A DNA stretch of 64,000 nucleotides. Source: Eledone cirrhosa. Lineage: Eukaryota. Below, piece by piece: positions 1,966-41,592 of this stretch (position 1 is the stretch's first letter; the number at the start of each line of letters is the position of its first letter). Below the pieces are notes generated by a model. It did no database searches. It saw nothing but the letters and a program-made list of their open reading frames with translations, and was not told where the DNA came from. The position numbers and the translations under genes were made by a program. The stretch is taken from the NCBI GenBank assembly GCA_964016885.1, contig OZ024749.1:35774001-35838000 (forward strand), read 5' to 3'.

Positions 1966-2350
1966 TAGGCAGAATTCTAGGAGAAGGAAAACTCTGATAT
2001 AACACCTGCAACCCTGATGGTATCCAATGATATTGACTTGTTCTTCTTTTTGGTAAATATCATCTTGGTTAAGAGAGTGGGACTGGCTTTGTGCAGTGCC
2101 TTTGCTCACTATAAAAGCTTCACGGCACAGGCATTGCTTTATATCTGGAGATCTCTCTGCACTTGTCATCACATGGTACCATGGGCCCAGCACTATGTGT
2201 CAGTAATTGTCACAAGTGTAGTGTTTGTACCAGAGTTTTCAAGTAGCTGGCTGGACTAAAAAGTCACACTCGTTCAGCGCATCAGTAGGGGTTCTCCTAC
2301 ATGGATATAAAGTAGTGGCCGTACTCGAAAACGAGTTGGCAGCCACCATG
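1966..2350 (-). mobile_element. Dispersed repeat resembling an RTE-clade 5' UTR (non-autonomous fragment)
   Basis: Near-identical to 10580-10962; diverged copy at 44336-44648. Minus strand begins ATGGTGGCTGCC and contains GAGTTTTCCTTCTCCTAG, a motif recalled from RTE 5' regions. Confidence 0.6.
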
Positions 2351-2459
2351 TATGTATACAACAGGCTTCTGTACCTTATATTATACAACCTTATAGGAAG
2401 CCAGCTAAATCTACATAGGTGTGAGGATGTGAGCTGTAAATATCATTTCCTTTTTGTCA

Positions 2460-2811
2460 TGTATATGTGTGCATGTATGTGTATATATATGTGTGTGTGT
2501 GTGTATGTGTGTATATATATACATGTGTGTGTGTATATATATATATATATAAATACATATGTGTGTGTGTATGTGTGTGTGCATATATATGTATATATAC
2601 ATACACATATATACACAGACGCAGACAAAAATATATGTGTGTATGTGTGTATATATATATATATAAATACATACGTGTGTGTGTATGTGTGTGTGCATAT
2701 ATATGTATATATATACATACACATATATACACAGACGCAGACAAAAATATGTGTGTTTGTGTATGTGTGTCTGTATGTATATGTGTGTGTATGTGTGTAT
2801 ATATATATACA

Positions 2812-2845
<34 letters not shown>

Positions 2846-2935
2846 AATACATGTGTGTGTGTATGTGTGTGTGTGTGTGTGTATGTGTGTGTATGTGTGT
2901 GTATGTGTGTGTATGTGTGTGTGTATATATATACA

Positions 2936-2983
<48 letters not shown>

Positions 2984-3155
2984 CATATGTGTGTGTGTAT
3001 GTGTGTGTGCATATATATGTATATATATACATACACATATATACACAGACGCAGACAAAAATATATGTGTGTATGTGTATGTGTGTCTGTATATATATGT
3101 AAGTGTCTGTGTGTGAATGTGTATAACGTGTATATATGTGTGTGTGTGTGTGCAT
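2460..3155. repeat. Compound (TG)/(TA) minisatellite with 3 copies of ACACAGACGCAGACAAAAAT
   Basis: Directly visible. It explains the CVYI/THIY pseudo-ORFs. Confidence 0.9.
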
Positions 3156-3336
3156 GTGATGGTGCAGAGAAAGAAGTGAAAAAGATATGGAGATGTGGAT
3201 TCTTCATCAAATGCTGAAAGGCGCAGCTTCATTTCCAGATTTCCATAACAGTCAATAACCTTTAAACCTGCCATTTATTGGGTGACACTTTCACAAACCT
3301 GGCTACACACTTTCTTGTACTTAGCTTCAGGACAGA

Positions 3337-5470
3337 GTGTGTGTGTAGGTGTGTAGGTGTCTTAGTTTGTGTGTGTGGAGGTGTCTCTGTGTGTGTGTAG
3401 GTAGGTATCTCTGTGTGTTTGGGAAGTGTTTGTCTGTCTATATGTGTGTGTGTGTGTAGGTGTCTCTCTGTGTGTGTGTAGGTAGGTATCTCTGTGTGTT
3501 TGGGAAGTGTTTGTCTGTCTATATGTGTGTGTGTGTGTAGGTGTCTCTCTGTGTGTGTGTAGGTAGGTATCTCTGTGTGTTTGGGAAGTGTTTGTCTGTC
3601 TATATGTGTGTGTGTGTGTAGGTGTCTCTGTGTGTGTGTAGGTAGGTATCTCTGTGTGTTTGGGAAGTGTTTGTCTGTCTATATGTGTAGGTGTGTGTAT
3701 ATATATGTATGTGTATGTGTAGGTGTGTGTAGGTGTCTCTGTGTGTGTGTAGGTAGGTATCTCTGTGTGTTTGGGAAGTGTTTGTCTGTCTATATGTGTG
3801 TGTGTGTGTAGGTGTCTCTGTGTGTGTGTAGGTAGGTATCTCTGTGTGTTTGGGAAGTGTTTGTCTGTCTATATGTGTAGGTGTGTGTATATATATGTAT
3901 GTGTATGTGTAGGTGTGTGTAGGTGTCTCTGTGTGTGTGTAGGTAGGTATCTCTGTGTGTTTGGGAAGTGTTTGTCTGTCTATATGTGTGTGTGTGTGTA
4001 GGTGTCTCTCTGTGTGTGTGTAGGTAGGTATCTCTGTGTGTTTGGGAAGTGTTTGTCTGTCTATATGTGTAGGTGTGTGTATATATATGTATGTGTATGT
4101 GTAGGTGTGTGTGGAGGTGTCTCTGTGTGTGTGTAGGTAGGTATCTCTGTGTGTTTGGGAAGTGTTTGTCTGTCTATATGTGTGTGTGTGTGTAGGTGTC
4201 TCTGTGTGTGTGTAGGTAGGTATCTCTGTGTGTTTGGGAAGTGTTTGTCTGTCTATATGTGTGTGTGTGTGTGTAGGTGTCTCTGTGTGTGTGTAGGTAG
4301 GTATCTCTGTGTGTTTGGGAAGTGTTTGTCTGTCTATATGTGTAGGTGTGTGTATATATATGTATGTGTATGTGTAGGTGTGTGTAGGTGTCTCTGTGTG
4401 TGTGTAGGTAGGTATCTCTGTGTGTTTGGGAAGTGTTTGTCTGTCTATATGTGTGTGTGTGTGTAGGTGTCTCTGTGTGTGTGTAGGTAGGTATCTCTGT
4501 GTGTTTGGGAAGTGTTTGTCTGTCTATATGTGTAGGTGTGTGTATATATATGTATGTGTATGTGTAGGTGTGTGTAGGTGTCTGTGTGTGTGTGTAGGTA
4601 GGTATCTCTGTGTGTTTGGGAAGTGTTTGTCTGTCTATATGTGTGTGTGTGTGTATATGTATATGTATGTGTATGTGTAGGTGTGTGTAGGTGTCTCTGT
4701 GTGTGTGTAGGTAGGTATCTCTGTGTGTTTGGGAAGTGTTTGTCTGTCTATATGTGTGTGTGTGTGTATATATATATATGTATGTGTATGTGTAGGTGTC
4801 TTAGTTTGTGTGTGTGTGTGTGTGGAGGTAGGTATCTCTGTGTGTTTGGGAAGTGTTTGTCTGTCTATATGTGTGTGTGTGTGTATGTATATGTATGTGT
4901 ATGTGTAGGTGTATGTGTAGGTGTCTTAGTTTGTGTGTGTGGAGGTGTCTCTGTGTGTGTAGGTAGGTACCTCTGTGTGTTTGGGAAGTGTTTGTCTGTC
5001 TATATGTGTGTGTGTGTGTAGGTGCCTCTGTGTGTGTGTAGGTAGGTATCTCTATGTGTTTGGGAAGTGTTTGTCTGTCTATATGTGTGTGTATATATAT
5101 ATATGTGTATGTGTAGGTGTCTTAGTTTGTTGTGTAGGTGTCTTAGTTTGTGTGTGTGTGTATATATATGTGTATGTGTAGGTGTCTTAGTTTGTGTGTG
5201 TGGAGGTGTCTCTCTGTGTGTGTGTAGGTAGGTACCTCTGTGTGTTTGGGAAGTGTTTGTCTGTCTATATGTGTGTGTGTGTGTGTATATATATATGTAT
5301 GTGTATGTGTAGGTGTGTCTGTGTCTGTGTATGTGTATGTGTGTTTGTGTGTGTATGTGTGTGTCTGTGTGTTTGTGTGTGCCTGTGTGTTTGTATGTGT
5401 CTCTGTGTGTGGGGGAGTGTCTGTCTGTCTGTCTGTGTGTGTGTATGTGTATGTCTGTTTGTCTGTTTGT
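3337..5470. repeat. TG-rich minisatellite, core GTAGGTAGGTATCTCTGTGTGTTTGGGAAGTGTTTGTCTGTCTATAT, short and long units forming a ~190-bp higher-order period
   Basis: About 20 copies of the core. Identical ORF translations at 3575 and 3765 (190 bp apart). Confidence 0.95.
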
Positions 5471-5704
5471 CTTAGATATACATACAAGCTATACAAGCTT
5501 TACTAGTGAATTCAACTTGAATCTCCTCCAGGAATCAGTTACTTTTTTTTTTTTTTATTAATAAAAGTATTTCCACAAACTTGACTTAAACAAAACAACT
5601 GAATAACTTCATGCTGTTCCAACCAATTCTTATCGATGTTCAAACTAGTTGGTTTAACATTTAATGAAGGAATTTATATTTGTCACATCTGCATATATGA
5701 ATAT

Positions 5705-6051
5705 ATCATCATTTCATTCATTTCATTTTACGTCCGCTTTTCCCTGCTTGCAAGGGTGAAACGGGAACTAATTCTGGCTTGATTTCTACAGCTGGATGCC
5801 CTTCCTAACACTAACCTCATTTACAGTGAGTGCTGGGTGCTTTTTTTTTGCCGTGGCACCTCCACGACCACTTTGCAGTGGAATGATATGGACCCCAGTC
5901 CCTATCATCTCATCTCTACAGCTGAGTAAACTGGAGCAATGTGAAATAAAGTGTCTTGCTCAAGGAAACAACACATCACCCGGTCTGAGAATTGAACTCA
6001 CAACCTTTCGATTGCAAGCCCAATGCTGTAACCACTAAGCCATGTGCCTCC
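5705..6051 (-). mobile_element. SINE family A (tRNA-derived head, RTE-derived tail), full length
   Basis: Minus strand GGAGGCACATGGCTTAGTGG (A box), GAGTTCAATTC (B box), central CCTTGAGCAAGACACTT, tail GTTAGGAAGGGCATCCAGCTGTAGAA...GGACGTAAAATGA. Confidence 0.9.
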
Positions 6052-6076
6052 ATCATATGTATATATGTATATAATA

Positions 6077-6265
6077 ATAATTGTTTCTAATTTAGGCACA
6101 AGGCCAGCAATTACCCAGTGCATTACTGGTACTTTATTTTATCGACCCCGTAAGGATGAAAGGCAAAGTCAAACTCAGCGGGATTTGAACTCAGATCGTA
6201 AAGGGACGTAACTATGCTGGAAAGCATGGCGTCCGACCCTCTACCGATACTGCCAATCCACCGCC
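6077..6265 (-). mobile_element. SINE family B, full length
   Basis: GGCGGTGGATTGGCAGTATCGGTAGAG head, GAGTTCAAATCC B box. Flanking duplication ATATGTATATAATAATAA. Confidence 0.9.
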
Positions 6266-6378: not shown

Positions 6379-6499
6379 TGTATGCATGTATGTATGTATG
6401 TATATATGTGTGTGTGTGTGTGTATGTATGTGTGCGTGTGTGTATGTATGTATATGTATATACTTATAATCATCGCTTTACATTCTTTTTCAAAAGTGT

Positions 6500-13102: not shown

Positions 13103-16060
13103 ATCATCATCATCATCATCATCAACGTTTAACGTCCGTGTTCCACGCTTGCATGGGTTTGGACGGGGGTAGTCCCACTTGAGGCAAGAGTGATTGTCTT
13201 GCTCGCATAGGACTGTCTGGCAGGTTTTCTACAGTTGGATGCCCTTCCTAACACCAACCACATTTACAGTGTGGGTCTGGGAGGTTTTTACCGTGTTGCC
13301 TACACGGCCACATTACAGCGTGGACTGTGTGTTTTTTTGTCGTGACACCTACACGATCTCATTTGTTTCGGCCCGGATGGCGCGGCACCAACATAACTTT
13401 ACATAGGACGGGGTGGTGTGGATGGGGTGGGGGTGGTGGTGGTGGGACGGGGTGTATTTTGTTAGAGATGCCTACTGGCAAGGCGGGTCTTCTCTGTTAC
13501 TGAGTACCGCCAAAGGTCTCGGTCCAGTGACATTGTCTTGGAGAGGTGTAAGTGTGTGAGGTCGGAGTTTATCAGCTCGTCCCAGGTTTTTCTAGGTCTG
13601 CCTATTCCGTGGCTACCGTCTATCTTTATTGCCCTGCACTTTGTTATACAGCTATCGACTTTCATGCGCATCACGTGTCCATACCAACGTAGCCTTCTCT
13701 CGAGTAAACAACATCTGATCCCTCTTATCTCTAATTTTTTCCTTAGTTCGTTTATGCTTTGCCGTTCACGTATATTACTGTTACACATCCAGCGGAGCAT
13801 GCAAGCTTCGTTCCTCTCTAGTCTGCGTATATCCTCTGCACACAATGCCCAGGTCTCACTGCCATGCAACATTGCTGTTCGTATGCAGGCATCGTACAAC
13901 CTGCCTTTCATTTTTAGGGAGAACCCTTTAGCAGCTAATAGTGGTATAAGCTCTCTGAACTTTTTCCAACCAGTTCTGACTCTAGCTACAGTACTTTCAG
14001 AGCACCCTCCCCCACTGCTGATTTTATCGCCCAGGTAACGGAAGCTGTCCACTATTTCTATAGAACCCTCTGCGCAATTGAAAGAGCTAGTATTGTGTGG
14101 GCACTTGCTGCTACTTATTGCACCAGAACACCGGCCACATGTAAAATCTATGTTCTTAGTTAGCTTACCTGTGATCCCACTACATCTTTTATGCACCCAT
14201 ACTTTGCATTTAGGACACAAAATGGAGTTTCTACCTACGCCTTTCCTACACACCGAGCACGACCATTTCCTAGAAGGGACCGCCGCCTTGTTTTCTTTCC
14301 TACAAACTAGAACTTTGGTCTTAGCCAGGTTAATTTTAAGTCCTTTTGACTCTAGGCCGTGCTTCCATGTTTGGAATTTCTTCTCTAGCTCGGCCATTGA
14401 TTCCGCTATGAGTGTCAGGTCGTCTGCGTATAGGAGTTCCCATGGGCAGCCTGTCTTGAACTCCTCTGTTATAGCCTGAAGGGCAATAATAAATAGTAGG
14501 GGGCTGAGAACAGAGCCCTGATGGACGCCAACTTTTACGCTAAACTCTTCACTATATTCGTTGTTAATTCTAACCTTGCTGACTGTTTCTTTATACATGG
14601 CTTGTATAGCCCTCACAAGCCATTCGTCAACGCCTAGTTTTCTAAGAGCCCACCAGATAATGGAGCGGGGGACTCTGTCGAAGGCTTTCTCCAAGTCGAC
14701 AAAAGCTAAGTAGAGGGGTTTACCTTTAGCTAGGTACTTCTCCTGTAGTTGTCGTACTATGAAAAGAGCGTCTGTGGTACTTTTGCCTGACACAAACCCG
14801 AACTGCATTTCATCTAGGTCAATTCTCTCTCTGATTAGTTGCGCTATTACTTTTTCTGTGACCTTCATGACCTGGTCGATTAATTTAATGCCTCTATAGT
14901 TACTCCTATCTAGGGCGTCTCCTTTACCCTTATAACAGTTAACGATGATGCTGCTATGCCAGTCCTTCGGAACAACCCCATTCTGTACGACTTGGTTAAC
15001 TATGCGGGTGACCATGGTGTGTCCCACCGTGCCAGATGCCTTCAGCATCTCAGCAACTATTTCCGAAGGCCCAGCCGCCTTACCTGTCTTCATATCCTTG
15101 ATTGCCTTACTTATTATACTCCCCTCGACTAACACTGCTGGTCCCTCTATTGGGTCGACATGGGGGAGACTGTCTTTCTCCCATTTATTCTCCTCATTTA
15201 GTAGCCTTTCATAGTGACACTTCCAAGCTGCCTTCTTATCAGTGTCGGTGATGGCAAGTATGCCATCATCGTTAAGTACACACTTCTCCCCGACAATATC
15301 ACGGTTTTCCTTGACGCATTGCCTAGCAATCCTGAACACCTCACGTTTTTGGTCATCGCGTTGTAGGACATGCTTGAACTTTCTTTCCTCAGCTTCCCTT
15401 CTTGCTAAGTACACTTCTCTCCTAGCTTCCCTCCTGGCCACTTGATAGTCTACTCTACTTCCCCCATCCCGCCATACTTTCCAAGCCTGCTTTTTGGCCT
15501 TAATTGACTCCTCCACCTTACTGTTCCACCACCATGTTACTCTCCTCCTGCCTACAGGCCTGCTCCAGCCACAGACTTCGTCTGTGGCCAACAGCAGGTT
15601 TGCTTTCAGAAATTCCCACTGTCCCTCTATATTGTCCGACTCTAAGTGTTCTTCCTTACTGTCGAAAGCATCAAGTAATATGTTTTGAAATTTATTTTTG
15701 GCTGTGGGGTCCTTTAGCTTCCATATTTTTCTCCTGAGGATAGTCCTCTTCTGCTGTCGAGTACGTCTCGACCTGACTATGAGGTCGCTAATTATCAGTC
15801 TATGTTGGGAGGTGCATTCTTCATGGGGGAGGGATTTAGTGTTTACAACAGACACTCTGTCACGTCTTCTGGTAAGGATATAATCTACCTGGCTTGTGTG
15901 TTCCCCGGATCTATAGGTGATCAGGTGATTGTCACGTTTTTTGAAGTTAGTGTTACAGATAGTTAGGTTATTTGCATCACAGAATTCCAGGATTCTGGAG
16001 CCTTCCTCATTTCTAGTACCAAACCCATAGCCTCCATGGATTTCGTCGTAGCCGTCACAA
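13103..16060 (-). mobile_element. RTE-clade LINE, 5'-truncated within the APE domain (copy 1)
   Basis: APE C-terminus, [16 protein letters not shown]-terminal motif, ~340-bp 3' UTR and (GAT)n tail. Confidence 0.95.
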
Positions 16061-16062
16061 TG
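13462..16062 (-). CDS. LINE ORF2 (partial APE endonuclease + reverse transcriptase + PHD-like finger)
   Basis: The open frame extends past the 15855 call: GYGFGTRNEEGSRILEF...QVDYIL...SQHRLI (APE). RT motifs [38 protein letters not shown] (14419-14430), FRYLG. Confidence 0.95.
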   Translation of the reverse strand, partial: HCDGYDEIHGGYGFGTRNEEGSRILEFCDANNLTICNTNFKKRDNHLITYRSGEHTSQVDYILTRRRDRVSVVNTKSLPHEECTSQHRLIISDLIVRSRRTRQQKRTILRRKIWKLKDPTAKNKFQNILLDAFDSKEEHLESDNIEGQWEFLKANLLLATDEVCGWSRPVGRRRVTWWWNSKVEESIKAKKQAWKVWRDGGSRVDYQVARREARREVYLARREAEERKFKHVLQRDDQKREVFRIARQCVKENRDIVGEKCVLNDDGILAITDTDKKAAWKCHYERLLNEENKWEKDSLPHVDPIEGPAVLVEGSIISKAIKDMKTGKAAGPSEIVAEMLKASGTVGHTMVTRIVNQVVQNGVVPKDWHSSIIVNCYKGKGDALDRSNYRGIKLIDQVMKVTEKVIAQLIRERIDLDEMQFGFVSGKSTTDALFIVRQLQEKYLAKGKPLYLAFVDLEKAFDRVPRSIIWWALRKLGVDEWLVRAIQAMYKETVSKVRINNEYSEEFSVKVGVHQGSVLSPLLFIIALQAITEEFKTGCPWELLYADDLTLIAESMAELEKKFQTWKHGLESKGLKINLAKTKVLVCRKENKAAVPSRKWSCSVCRKGVGRNSILCPKCKVWVHKRCSGITGKLTKNIDFTCGRCSGAISSSKCPHNTSSFNCAEGSIEIVDSFRYLGDKISSGGGCSESTVARVRTGWKKFRELIPLLAAKGFSLKMKGRLYDACIRTAMLHGSETWALCAEDIRRLERNEACMLRWMCNSNIRERQSINELRKKLEIRGIRCCLLERRLRWYGHVMRMKVDSCITKCRAIKIDGSHGIGRPRKTWDELINSDLTHLHLSKTMSLDRDLWRYSVTEKTRLASRHL

Positions 16063-16078
16063 TTATTTATATAAATAT

Positions 16079-16406
16079 CACATGGCTTAGTGGTTAGAGC
16101 ATTGGCCTTGCAATCGAAAGGTTGTAAGTTCAATTCTCGGACCGGATGATGTGTTGTTTCCTTGAGCAAGACACTTTATTTCACATTGCTCCAGTTTACT
16201 CAGCTGTAGAAATGAGATGATAGGGACTGGGGTCCATATCATTCCACTGCAAAGTGGTCGTGGAGGTGCCACGGCAAAAAAAAAAGCACCCAGCACTCAC
16301 TGTAAATGAGGTTGGTGTTAGGAAGGGCATCCAGCTGTAGAAATCAAGCTAGAATCAGTTCCCGTCCCACCCTTGCAAGCAGGGAAAGCGGACGTAAAAT
16401 GAATGA
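16079..16406 (+). mobile_element. SINE family A
   Basis: Same family; head clipped by a few nt; abuts the LINE 5' truncation point. Confidence 0.9.
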
Positions 16407-16450
16407 ATATTAAAATAACAGATTAAAGTTTAAGCAAAGGAATCGTTTCA

Positions 16451-16492
16451 CCGAGCTGATGATCTGAATAAGGTGAAACAAATTGTTCTTAG
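16451..16492 (+). ncRNA. Minimal hammerhead-like motif (family H1)
   Basis: CCGAG-CTGATGA-TCTGAATAAGGT-GAAAC-AAATT-GTT-CTTAG; weak stem II. Confidence 0.5.
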
Positions 16493-16537
16493 AAATGGTG
16501 AATTAACTATTGTGGAACTACTTATATATATATATAT

Positions 16538-16972: not shown

Positions 16973-17022
<50 letters not shown>

Positions 17023-17234
17023 GTTTCAGAAAGTTGTGAAAGCAACAATTCTTTGCTTAAACTTTAATCTGAACTAATAATAAATATTTGCTCTACGGGT
17101 TTATATATTCTTTTGGTGTCAGCCGGATGGCTGGAACAGGTAAAAGAGTAAATGATATATATACAATCCTTATCGAGCCCTCTTCAGATTTTGGTCTTCG
17201 TAATTATTAATACTATATATATATATATATATAT

Positions 17235-17332: not shown

Positions 17333-17533
17333 TTGATTACACTCCTCCTTTGTTCGTGTTTCCACTACAGAATCCCTACCAACCTGTCGAGTCACCTTAA
17401 CGTATGTTGAGAACTTTCCTCACAACTTGTTCTACCAAGCTTTGGAATACTCCTAATAACTGAATATATATATATATATATATAAAATAATTAAGTCAAA
17501 TATTTAAAATTTGGCTTCGTTTATTAAAGATGT

Positions 17534-17588
17534 ACTACTATATATATTTCGGTGACAGCCATCTTTGGCTGTGACCTCTTCAGGCAGT
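17534..17588 (-). ncRNA. Minimal type-I hammerhead ribozyme (canonical core)
   Basis: ACTGC-CTGAAGA-GGTCACAGCCA-AAGA-TGGCTGTCACC-GAAAT-ATAT-ATA-GTAGT: 5-bp stem I, 11-bp stem II with 1 mismatch, 2-bp stem III with palindromic loop, AUA cleavage triplet. AATAAA follows. Confidence 0.85.
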
Positions 17589-17813
17589 CCAAATTGGTGT
17601 GGTAGAGACAGGTACACATGTTGTTGAAGTGTTTTACTCCGTCAATACTCCGATATGTCCAGCTCCTGGTTGGGTTGTTATTTCTCTGAGGAACAACCAA
17701 CATATACTAAAAAAAATATATATATATATTTGTTTCTATTACTTCTGTATCGTATTTATTTACTTTGTTCTTAACTCTGTAGCGGAGATTCATTTGGTCT
17801 CCTAGTTAGAATT

Positions 17814-18022
17814 TTAGTCTACGACTTCTGCTATACCATTTACGTGGTTTTGTCTTTGCGTGCTTTTGTTCTCCACGCTCCACATATGACTTATTATCTT
17901 CGTTTTTTCGTTCATTGCCAGAGAACGTCTATATGCACCACCTAAGAGAACATTAGTCTACGACCTCTTTTATACCATAAACGTGGTTTTGTCTTTGCGC
18001 GTAATTGTTTTTCACCGCTCCT
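17814..18022. repeat. Diverged direct repeat (~140-bp period) in a (TA)n-flanked element
   Basis: TTAGTCTACGAC..TATACCAT..ACGTGGTTTTGTCTTTGCG at about 17814 and 17953. Confidence 0.8.
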
Positions 18023-18027
18023 ATTAA

Positions 18028-18072
<45 letters not shown>

Positions 18073-18100
18073 TAATTCCACAACAGTTAATTCACCATTT

Positions 18101-18141
18101 CTGAGAACAATTGTTTCACTTTATTCAGATCATCAGCTCAG
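18101..18141 (-). ncRNA. Minimal hammerhead-like motif (family H1)
   Basis: CTGAG-CTGATGA-TCTGAATAAAGT-GAAAC-AATT-GTT-CTCAG: perfect 5-bp stem I, palindromic stem III (AACAATTGTT), non-canonical stem II. Confidence 0.6.
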
Positions 18142-18524
18142 TTTAAACTCATCCCATGGATTGAGTGCTCTACTACTGATGAGTTTATGGCATCTTAATA
18201 TATTAATAAATTACTTTAATTAATATCTATTTCTTTGCCACAATGAAACTGCAGTATAAGCACAAATTTGTAAGTGAAATTTTATTTTTATTTTAAAATG
18301 TATTTTTTTGCTTGTAATTCTTACTTTTTTTACTATAAATTTTTTACTGTAAATTTTTACACCTAAATATAATTTAGAAAAAATAAAGATCTACAAATTA
18401 TAGTTTTTAGCCTATATAGTATTTGAGATATTTATGGTGTAATATGGCTGAAATAGTTTTAGTTTAGTCTATTCTTATATTATATATATATATATATGTG
18501 TGTGTGTGTATGCATGTATGTGTG

Positions 18525-24237: not shown

Positions 24238-24381
24238 CATACGCATACACAACACACATACACACCCATACATACACATACACAATACACACACACACAC
24301 ACATACATACACATACACAACACACACACGCATACATACATACATACATACATATATACATACATATGTAAGTATATGTAT

Positions 24382-28027: not shown

Positions 28028-28378
28028 GGAGGCACATGGCTTAGTGGTTAGAGCATTGGCTTTGCAATCGAAAGGTTGTGAGTTCAATTCTCAGACTGGG
28101 TGATGTGTTGTTTCCTTGAGCAAGACACTTTATTTCACATTGCTCCAGTTTACTCAGCTGTAGAAATGAGATGATAGGGACTGGGGTCCCTATCATTCCA
28201 CTGCAAAGTGGTCGTGGAGGTGCCACGGCAAAAAAGCACCCAGCACTCACTGTAAATGAGGTTGGTGTTAGGAAGTGCATCCAGCTGTAGAAATCAAGCC
28301 AGAATCAGTTTCCGTCCCACCCTTGCAAGCAGGGAAAAAGCGGACGTAAAATGAAATGATGAATGATGATGATGATGA
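28028..28378 (+). mobile_element. SINE family A, full length
   Basis: Same family; (GAT)n tail. Confidence 0.9.
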
Positions 28379-39953: not shown

Positions 39954-40588
39954 TACTGTAAATAGGAACCCTTTAAAATGGGTTGTATTGTTTTATAGAA
40001 CTAAAGCCAGTTTTGACTGGGTTGGTATCAAAAAGAGTCTAAAATATTGGTGAGCTTTATACCAGAACATTTTCATTACTTTTATAGACATTTTACAGAC
40101 GTTTTAACAGATGTTATAATACGGTTGATGTTGATATTAGTAGTATTGTTATTAACAGTGTCAGACATGATAATAAAGGGTTAAATTCCCATATGATGTA
40201 AAGTATTTTTTGTAATCAAATCTGTCTGTCTGTATGTATGTGAATGAATGTGAATATATTATGTATGTGAATGTATGTAAGTATGTATGCATGCATGTAT
40301 ATATATATATATATGCGTATGTGTATATATATATGCGAGTGTGTATATATATATATATATGCATGTGTGTATATATATATGCGTGTGTGTATATATATAT
40401 GCGTGTGTGTATATATATATATATGTGTGTGTATATATATATATATGTGTGTGTATATATATATATATATGTGTAAGTGTGTATATATATATATGTGTGT
40501 GTGTGTGTGTCTATATATATATATAAATCATATATATACTTCATAAGAACAGAGGAGAAGATATATGTTATGTTATGGAATAAAACTT

Positions 40589-41592
40589 GTTCTTAAAAGT
40601 CTTGCTTATATATTTCTGCTAATATATATATACATACAGACATGTATTTATGTATGCATACTTGTATGTCTATATGTATGTTCTTAAAAGTCTTGCTTAT
40701 ATATTTCTGCTAATATATATATACATACAGACATGTATTTATGTATGCATACTTGTATGTCTATATGTATGTTCTTAAAAGTCTTGCTTATATATTTCTG
40801 CTAATATATATATACATACAGACATGTATTTATGTATGCATACTTGTATGTCTATATGTATGTTCTTAAAAGTCTTGCTTATATATTTCTGCTAATATAT
40901 ATATACATACAGACATGTATTTATGTATGCATACTTGTATGTCTATATGTATGTTCTTAAAAGTCTTGCTTATATATTTCTGCTAATATATATATACATA
41001 CAGACATGTATTTATGTATGCATACTTGTATGTCTATATGTATGTTCTTAAAAGTCTTGCTTATATATTTCTGCTAATATATATATACATACAGACATGT
41101 ATTTATGTATGCATACTTGTATGTCTATATGTATGTTCTTAAAAGTCTTGCTTATATATTTCTGCTAATATATATATACATACAGACATGTATTTATGTA
41201 TGCATACTTGTATGTCTATATGTATGTTCTTAAAAGTCTTGCTTATATATTTCTGCTAATATATATATACATACAGACATGTATTTATGTATGCATACTT
41301 GTATGTCTATATGTATGTTCTTAAAAGTCTTGCTTATATATTTCTGCTAATATATATATACATACAGACATGTATTTATGTATGCATACTTGTATGTCTA
41401 TATGTATGTTCTTAAAAGTCTTGCTTATATATTTCTGCTAATATATATATACATACAGACATGTATTTATGTATGCATACTTGTATGTCTATATGTATGT
41501 TCTTAAAAGTCTTGCTTATATATTTCTGCTAATATATATATACATACAGACATGTATTTATGTATGCATACTTGTATGTCTATATGTATGTT
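40589..41592. repeat. 91-bp tandem repeat, 11 apparently identical copies
   Basis: GTTCTTAAAAGTCTTGC recurs at 40589, 40680, 40771 ... 41499. Confidence 0.95.

Follow-up and report, generated by a model that had tools for sequence, protein, structure and literature searches.

The hammerhead ribozyme motif found on the minus strand of the 64,000-nucleotide stretch of Eledone cirrhosa DNA analysed here (the window) is most probably that of a Hydra-clade Penelope-like element, which carries it in its 3' terminal repeat (pLTR) and of which this copy is a 5'-truncated insertion into (TA)n that is likely inert; we put the probability of this reading at about 0.88. A preliminary description had recognized the ribozyme motif itself, but had missed this context: the motif is not a stand-alone ribozyme, and belongs to the pLTR of a very abundant element. 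The motif and the insertion that carries it are made up of the following features, assigned from the sequence except where another basis is named.

17588-17534, minus strand: type I hammerhead motif (sequence and folds), with a stem I of 5 bp and a stem II of 10 bp that holds one C.C mismatch
17588-17584, minus strand: stem I, 5' strand ACUGC
17583-17577, minus strand: core CUGAAGA
17576-17566, minus strand: stem II, 5' strand GGU(C)ACAGCCA, followed by the loop AAGA
17561-17551, minus strand: stem II, 3' strand UGGCUGU(C)ACC, which includes the G10.1-C11.1 pair
17550-17548, minus strand: GAA, followed by A15.1 at 17547
17547-17540, minus strand: self-complementary AUAUAUAU (A15.1 to U16.1), a 2-bp helix III as a monomer and a predicted 8-bp intermolecular helix in a dimer
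17539, minus strand: A17 of the AUA cut site, with cleavage predicted between 17539 and the G at 17538 (hammerhead numbering)
17538-17534, minus strand: stem I, 3' strand GUAGU
17537, minus strand: rare U that makes a G.U wobble in stem I; the family base is C (exact-match counts)
17525-17520, minus strand: AATAAA, 8 nt after stem I and 13 nt 3' of the predicted cut, inside the element
17694-17482, minus strand: probable 5'-truncated 3' end (pLTR piece) of the Hydra-clade element, 213 bp, reaching from -147 to about +57 as counted from the cut and ending at end site 1
17692-17728, plus strand: inverted remnant of the element tail (outer end at end site 2), head to head with the piece over a GTT microhomology
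17464-17483, no strand assigned: (TA)n microsatellite, the target, adjoining the insertion's 3' end

The hammerhead motif is real. Every element of the type I core, as defined in the methods of PMC3088659, is present in the sequence (C3 U4 G5 A6 N7 G8 A9, G12 A13 A14, A15.1-U16.1 and H17), and re-reading recovered the core, stems, GAAA, 2-bp stem III and AUA site of the preliminary description in their places. The AATAAA that it had noted downstream is also there and is common to the window copy and a subfamily 82% identical to it, and its predicted cut 3' of A17539 agrees with the hammerhead numbering. The term “canonical minimal” that it used mixes two usages: neither helix III nor loop 3 is required by the min-HHR descriptor of Cervera and De la Pena (2014), whereas a small palindromic helix III is kept here, as in the Hydra hammerheads called canonical by Craig 2021. 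Its stem I, ACUGC/GUAGU, is indeed present in the window, but the G.U pair in it is a rare variant, the family state GCAGT giving five Watson-Crick base pairs. A descriptor requiring the core, a stem I of at least 4 bp, a stem II of at least 3 bp and UH matched once in the window, against a mean of 0.06 over 100 dinucleotide shuffles, six of which contained one match. The Infernal comparison with Rfam hammerhead models that had been proposed as a check gave no match to the motif, either at the gathering score or at E<=10. The missing match lowers membership in the Rfam families and leaves the hammerhead reading unaffected. The fixed position of the motif in the element and its conservation within a retroelement family are a stronger argument against chance than the descriptor count.

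Folding points to a structure that would be completed between two molecules. In the MFE fold of the motif stems I and II form and helix III does not (z = -2.61, a stability equalled by 3 of 200 shuffles). In the isolated motif the pairing probability is 0.73 for stem I and 0.98 for the 10.1-11.1 pair, and that of stem I is only 0.21 within the 213-nt element piece. The A15.1-U16.1 pair of helix III has a probability of 0.005 in the monomer, while helix III is present in the predicted dimer MFE, a double hammerhead joined by an 8-bp AUAUAUAU helix III, at -38.4 kcal/mol versus -31.2 kcal/mol for two monomers without helix III. Dimer dependence, which the preliminary description had deduced from the short palindromic stem III, is thus favoured over monomers in silico. 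The family form of locus L005 is predicted to dimerize like the window copy, and the form with U11.1 has another dimer MFE. A min-HHR of Schistosoma has been reported to be inactive as a monomer and to have low activity as a dimer (PMC4209133). No second hammerhead of the same family was found within the 64-kb window.

The parent element was traced through related loci. Several of 30 loci fetched with the window piece extend 5' by 0.3 to >1 kb, and one (L031) runs into a broken ORF for a reverse transcriptase (RT) and endonuclease (EN). With the L031 RT, 38,566 first-look candidates were obtained, 143 of them scored, and 20 loci were taken for long open frames or high identity and hence independently of the hammerhead. 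A hammerhead piece follows the RT + GIY-YIG ORF on the same strand in 17 of these 20 RT-chosen loci and is absent after the ORF in L050, L061 and L068. The window piece is 94-96% identical to the ends of the ORF-bearing copies L056 and L057, which represent its own subfamily and have damaged ORFs. The L049-type subfamily, 82% identical, retains an open 892-aa ORF with its stop 1,239 nt before the cut site; in L049 the ORF spans 2318-4996 and the element, about 4 kb, ends near 6394. The order of the full element is the 892-aa RT + GIY-YIG ORF, a 3' UTR of ~1.2 kb, the hammerhead, AATAAA, end site 1, a tail of ~100 nt and end site 2. Partial tandems were seen at L059, L064 and L065, and in tandems the tail continues into the next ORF (ATG at +211). 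The features of Penelope-like elements found are 5' truncation, partial tandems (pLTR), an inverted 5' copy and an optional tail.

The single ORF of L049 encodes an RT with YRDD and, at its C-terminal end, a GIY-YIG domain with VYGC...YIG. Pfam GIY-YIG was matched by the C-terminal part at E=6e-4, below the curated cut-off, and the whole ORF matched nothing in Pfam at E<=0.001, RT families included; a match to DUF2701 (E=0.02-0.1) was dismissed as noise. The element ORF has no tblastn match within the window. The 866-aa RT ORF of the window at 13462-16062, considered as the parent, was ruled out by its RVT_1 and PHD domains and by this lack of a tblastn match.

The inverted tail remnant of the window copy matches the L059 tail over 22 bp at 95% and L049 over 36 bp at 86%, short alignments with E of about 2e-4 to 4e-4, and blends into the target repeat at its AT-rich outer side. 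The same head-to-head layout occurs in L003, L007, L009, L014 and L018. In contigs of four public runs (X1-X4, from one study and of unrecorded kind), neither an empty-site joint nor a piece spanning the window insertion was seen. The window copy is likely a lone, truncated and inert leftover.

By its motifs, rather than by a tree with named references, the element is assigned to the Hydra clade. Hydra elements are characterized in section 11 of PMC8557442 by RWK, DKT, CxCx5C, the lack of CCHH, CxxC and CxH around E and N, together with insertion into (TA)n and the presence of hammerheads. The L049 translation has RWK at 36 and HADKT at 117 (DKT in place of DKG), CNCRNPESC as the CxCx5C linker, CKLCLNE and CRH as the CxxC and CxH around the conserved E and N, no CCHH, and only one cysteine in the GIY-YIG core. 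The elements also insert into (TA)n and have their hammerhead close to the 3' end. The length of about 4 kb exceeds the <3 kb of Hydra, which is given in PMC8557442 as a tendency and is not diagnostic. Neptune and Nematis were rejected, as the L049 protein has neither a CX2-5CxxC match nor CCHH, and so were Naiad and Chlamys (N-terminal GIY-YIG, DKA, no canonical hammerhead), since L049 has a C-terminal EN and DKT. The pairing of a Hydra element with a hammerhead is already published (Craig 2021, PMC8557442), and the supplement of that work contains 6 new and 21 Repbase Hydra families, among them Hydra-1_Obim from Octopus bimaculoides, whose hammerhead has a different sequence. No paper on the hammerhead of the present family was found in the literature searched, and the family may already be catalogued in repeat libraries such as Repbase and Dfam. 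The words “hammerhead”, “ribozyme” and “Hydra” are absent from the main text of a 2026 repeat annotation of O. vulgaris (PMC13282606).

We estimated how many copies of the motif the genome carries and in which forms. A 201-bp query gave 1,755 first-look candidates in the 3.0-Gb genome, and the 40 of these that were scored are 97-98% identical to it, the window itself aside. Exact 27-mers from the 3' half of the motif, whose counts are lower bounds on copies, total at least 7,851 genome-wide (reversed controls: 0), made up of 3,025 with C11.1 and GCAGT, 4,785 with U11.1 and GCAGT and 41 with C11.1 and GTAGT, the form in the window. As GTAGT accounts for only 41 of the 3,066 C11.1 matches, the stem I G.U of the window is a rare variant; it is likely a mutation in the window copy or its recent source. 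The X1-X4 contigs have the family base at 17537 almost throughout. The closer subfamily of the window copy, tagged by the 8-nt stretch after stem I, has 367 exact matches. The open-ORF subfamily (L049-L055 and L066-L068) carries G10.1.U11.1 instead of G-C and is the most numerous form, with the 4,785 matches above.

The motif appears better conserved than the sequence around it. In an alignment of 81 copies, 59 of them distinct, the window copy and subfamily B are identical at 52 of 54 motif positions and 116 of 146 flanking positions (Fisher p=0.004); against subfamily C (L060) the counts are 50/55 and 130/157, a difference that is not significant (p=0.19). All core bases are unchanged between subfamilies with flanks about 80% identical. 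In the X1-X4 contigs, only two listed variable places fall inside the 55-nt motif, the rare base of the window copy itself and one in loop II. Covariation, which the preliminary description had proposed as a check among genomic copies, gave no signal above shuffles: among 10 variants hand-picked for diversity, 12 of 17 stem pairs are invariant and one changes on both sides, in a single copy (190 of 500 and 108 of 500 shuffles were as good). The AUAUAUAU palindrome is unchanged in all 10 of the aligned variants.

The 465 kb of fetched loci (L003-L068) also hold roughly a dozen further motifs of hammerhead shape whose stems differ and whose helix III regions are mostly palindromic (ATGCGCAT, ATATGCAT, ACCATGGT and ACTAGT). 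They provide context and are no evidence of covariation. The genome seems rich in hammerhead-bearing repeats, judging from such motifs; in giant squid, 235 loci matching Rfam hammerhead 1 have been reported (PMC6962438). An octopod host is suggested by its microsatellite load and size and by named homologues in Argonauta and Octopus.

A search with P0025 brought up a second, very uniform family, whose open ORFs of 830-832 aa share 40% identity and the Hydra motifs with L049.

L069-L072 and L074 (for example L071, about 5410-5460; G000:C23:27749501-27759500): young sister family, also Hydra, in which full tandem units are 4,199 bp long

It carries a hammerhead-shaped motif in a like place, spotted by eye and passed over by the strict descriptor, in which the core reads CCGAAGA in 3,907 exact matches versus CTGAAGA in 29. 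An A stands opposite G at 10.1/11.1, and the palindrome is ACAGCTGT or ACAATTGT depending on the subfamily, with changes on both sides. The U4C change has been reported to lower in vitro activity and to permit viroid infectivity (Perreault 2011, PMC3088659).

The 3' ends of the insertions fall at two fixed places past the cut site. In the tandem locus L059, on which distances from the cut were measured, site 1 falls at +61, site 2 follows at +158 and the ATG of the next ORF at +211. The 50 loci supplied 91 ends: site 1 accounts for 40 and site 2 for 33, another 13 continue into an ORF, and the remaining 5 are at other positions (-8, +16, +46, +92, which is at a locus edge, and +111), so that 73 of the 78 ends not entering an ORF are at one of the two sites. 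The end counts from L001-L030 are biased, the query having reached 39 nt past the cut site, and for this reason the RT-chosen loci and a genome-wide cut-site count were used as the fair test. The 20 RT-chosen loci gave 17 ends at site 1, 17 at site 2, 13 in an ORF and 3 elsewhere (34 of 37 non-ORF ends at the sites). Genome-wide, the cut site leads directly into perfect (AT)n, the only kind of end this count detects, at just 10 places, versus 7,851 that continue into stem I. Outward-facing pairs, judged by eye, have one end at each site in 20 of 24 cases and two alike in none, the other 4 having an odd or cut end. The window copy fits this pattern, with a direct end at site 1 and the short inverted remnant at 17692-17728. 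The two fixed ends past the cut, together with only 10 joins of the cut site to (TA)n, make it likely that the template for reverse transcription was RNA either uncleaved or re-ligated at the hammerhead.

A mechanism may be proposed by analogy with the Penelope-like element PAc of Anolis, in which two internal RT start sites bound the tail, the hammerhead cleaves only with protein and catalytic mutants still insert in vitro (PMC11167929). The element protein would nick (TA)n, and reverse transcription would start at the two internal end sites on RNA uncut or re-joined at the hammerhead. Early termination could then account for the inverted tail and the 213-bp window copy. The hammerhead of master elements may cleave weakly, either as a dimer through the AUAUAUAU palindrome or with the element protein, and may be under selection, yet its cleavage would not set the copied 3' end.

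Alternatively, the hammerhead could be a required processing ribozyme, with tandem transcripts cut to unit length, circularised and reverse-transcribed round the circle past the cut and the tail, as proposed in PMC4209133. Such circles account for genomic copies that read through the cut site, and the core bases kept between subfamilies and the partial tandems noted above are consistent with this route. A re-ligated circle would leave the same genomic picture as read-through RNA, however, and genomic data cannot separate the two. In PAc, catalytic mutants leave in vitro insertion unchanged and the text of PMC11167929 reports no RNA-seq reads ending at the cut, and the young sister family reached 3,907 copies with a U4C core. 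We therefore consider obligatory processing unlikely.

Less probable again, though compatible with the insertion ends, is that the fold of Hydra-element hammerheads has been kept as a signal for RNA pairing or template positioning rather than for catalysis. Two element RNAs would be held together through the palindromic helix III, and one protein dimer would prime both nicked strands, one at each end site. Priming of two RNAs at site 1 and site 2 would explain why 20 of 24 pairs are mixed and none alike, and G10.1.U11.1 in the largest subfamily and the sister family's U4C core, with the palindrome kept through two-sided changes, are consistent with it.

That the 213-bp piece amplifies as a unit, as a non-autonomous retrozyme or a mini-element like a SINE, is very unlikely. 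Many top-scoring copies start near -155 to -160, and animal retrozymes have been argued to derive from pLTRs (bioRxiv 10.64898/2026.07.22.740005), but the cluster near -158 mirrors the edge of the 201-bp query used to rank matches, the nested 5' ends range from -147 to past -1,000 and on into the ORF, and the 30 loci contain no short-monomer tandem arrays. Co-option of the window copy by the host, for example for cutting a minus-strand host transcript, would be in keeping with its intact core, but is extremely improbable for a copy that bears a rare change in stem I, is surrounded by fragments of other repeats, has no second family hammerhead in the window and is predicted not to form helix III alone. 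That AT-rich repeat DNA matches the hammerhead consensus by chance, despite the 6 shuffled windows in 100 with a match, the empty Rfam result and a helix III reading (AT)4 in an (AT)n-rich genome, is scarcely credible given the fixed place in a Penelope-like element whose published relatives carry hammerheads (PMC8557442), conservation above that of the flanks and the sister family's motif at a like place with a different palindrome.

Returning to the pLTR hammerhead of a Hydra-clade element, the family resembles the elements described in PMC8557442 in RWK, DKT, CxCx5C, the lack of CCHH, CxxC/CxH, (TA)n targets and a type I hammerhead near the 3' end. The G10.1.U11.1 of its open-ORF subfamily is also present, on our reading of the table there, in the hammerheads of Hydra-1_oBim and Penelope-13_HM. 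It differs from Hydra-1_oBim in hammerhead sequence, and is thus a different family, and from published Hydra elements in its length (about 4 kb with a 1.2-kb 3' UTR versus <3 kb), its tail (about 100 nt versus 30-40 bp) and its long stem II (10 bp). It has thousands of copies and clear pLTR tandems, whereas Hydra-1_Obim is noted in that work as being without pLTR.

Like the metazoan pLTR hammerheads of PMC4209133, the motif is type I, with a 5-bp helix I, a long helix II, G10.1-C11.1 and a palindromic helix III, and those too are mostly single copies from truncated elements and predicted dimers. Unlike the strict min-HHR of that study, it has no unpaired base between A9 and G10.1 and keeps a 2-bp helix III with a loop, as does a variant group described there. 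The Poseidon element PAc (PMC11167929) shares the two fixed ends that bound the tail 3' of the hammerhead, the AT-rich targets and a cut site that is read through. PAc belongs to another clade, however, and its hammerhead overlaps the ORF start with RT start sites inside the ORF, whereas in the window family the hammerhead and both ends are upstream of the next ATG (+211). The non-LTR retrozymes of bioRxiv 10.64898/2026.07.22.740005 also have a type I hammerhead in a non-coding repeat related to Penelope-like elements. They consist of at least two consecutive short hammerhead units, whereas the motif is solo in the window, short tandems are lacking in 30 loci and the repeat is continuous with an RT + EN ORF.

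The single locus is of minor importance, and the family is a useful system. Hydra elements are known from 27 families, one of them from octopus (tables of PMC8557442), and here two families with open ORFs and full tandems number in the thousands of copies. Their natural core variants (C11.1, U11.1 and U4C) and two sharp insertion ends suit in vitro tests of the kind done on PAc.

Other repeats were noted in the window and in the fetched loci. On the minus strand at 13462-16062, an RT-bearing open frame of 866 aa, which includes RVT_1 and a PHD finger, marks a young LINE, presumably RTE-like, that is 5'-truncated within its endonuclease region; a near-identical copy is found in L067. A tRNA-like match (29.3 bits) lies at 28035-28098 on the plus strand, and a similar stretch at about 16080-16150, also plus, heads a repeat near 16080-16365 that is common to several loci and is likely a tRNA-derived SINE. 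Around the insertion, 16380-16530, 17020-17225, 17730-18030 and 18070-18200 hold pieces of further repeat families, bounded by (TA)n and each with matches at other loci. CTGATGA...GAAAC is present at 16456-16511 and 18082-18136, where hammerhead stems are absent. Another Penelope-like RT + EN ORF, frameshifted, adjoins a copy of the window family on the minus strand of L032 (about 4000-6200). A 130-bp stretch of the window, 24246-24375, is 73% identical to a stretch of L056 past its ORF. Finally, eleven copies of a 91-bp unit at 100% identity fill 40588-41592, an array that is either a very recent minisatellite expansion or an assembly feature.
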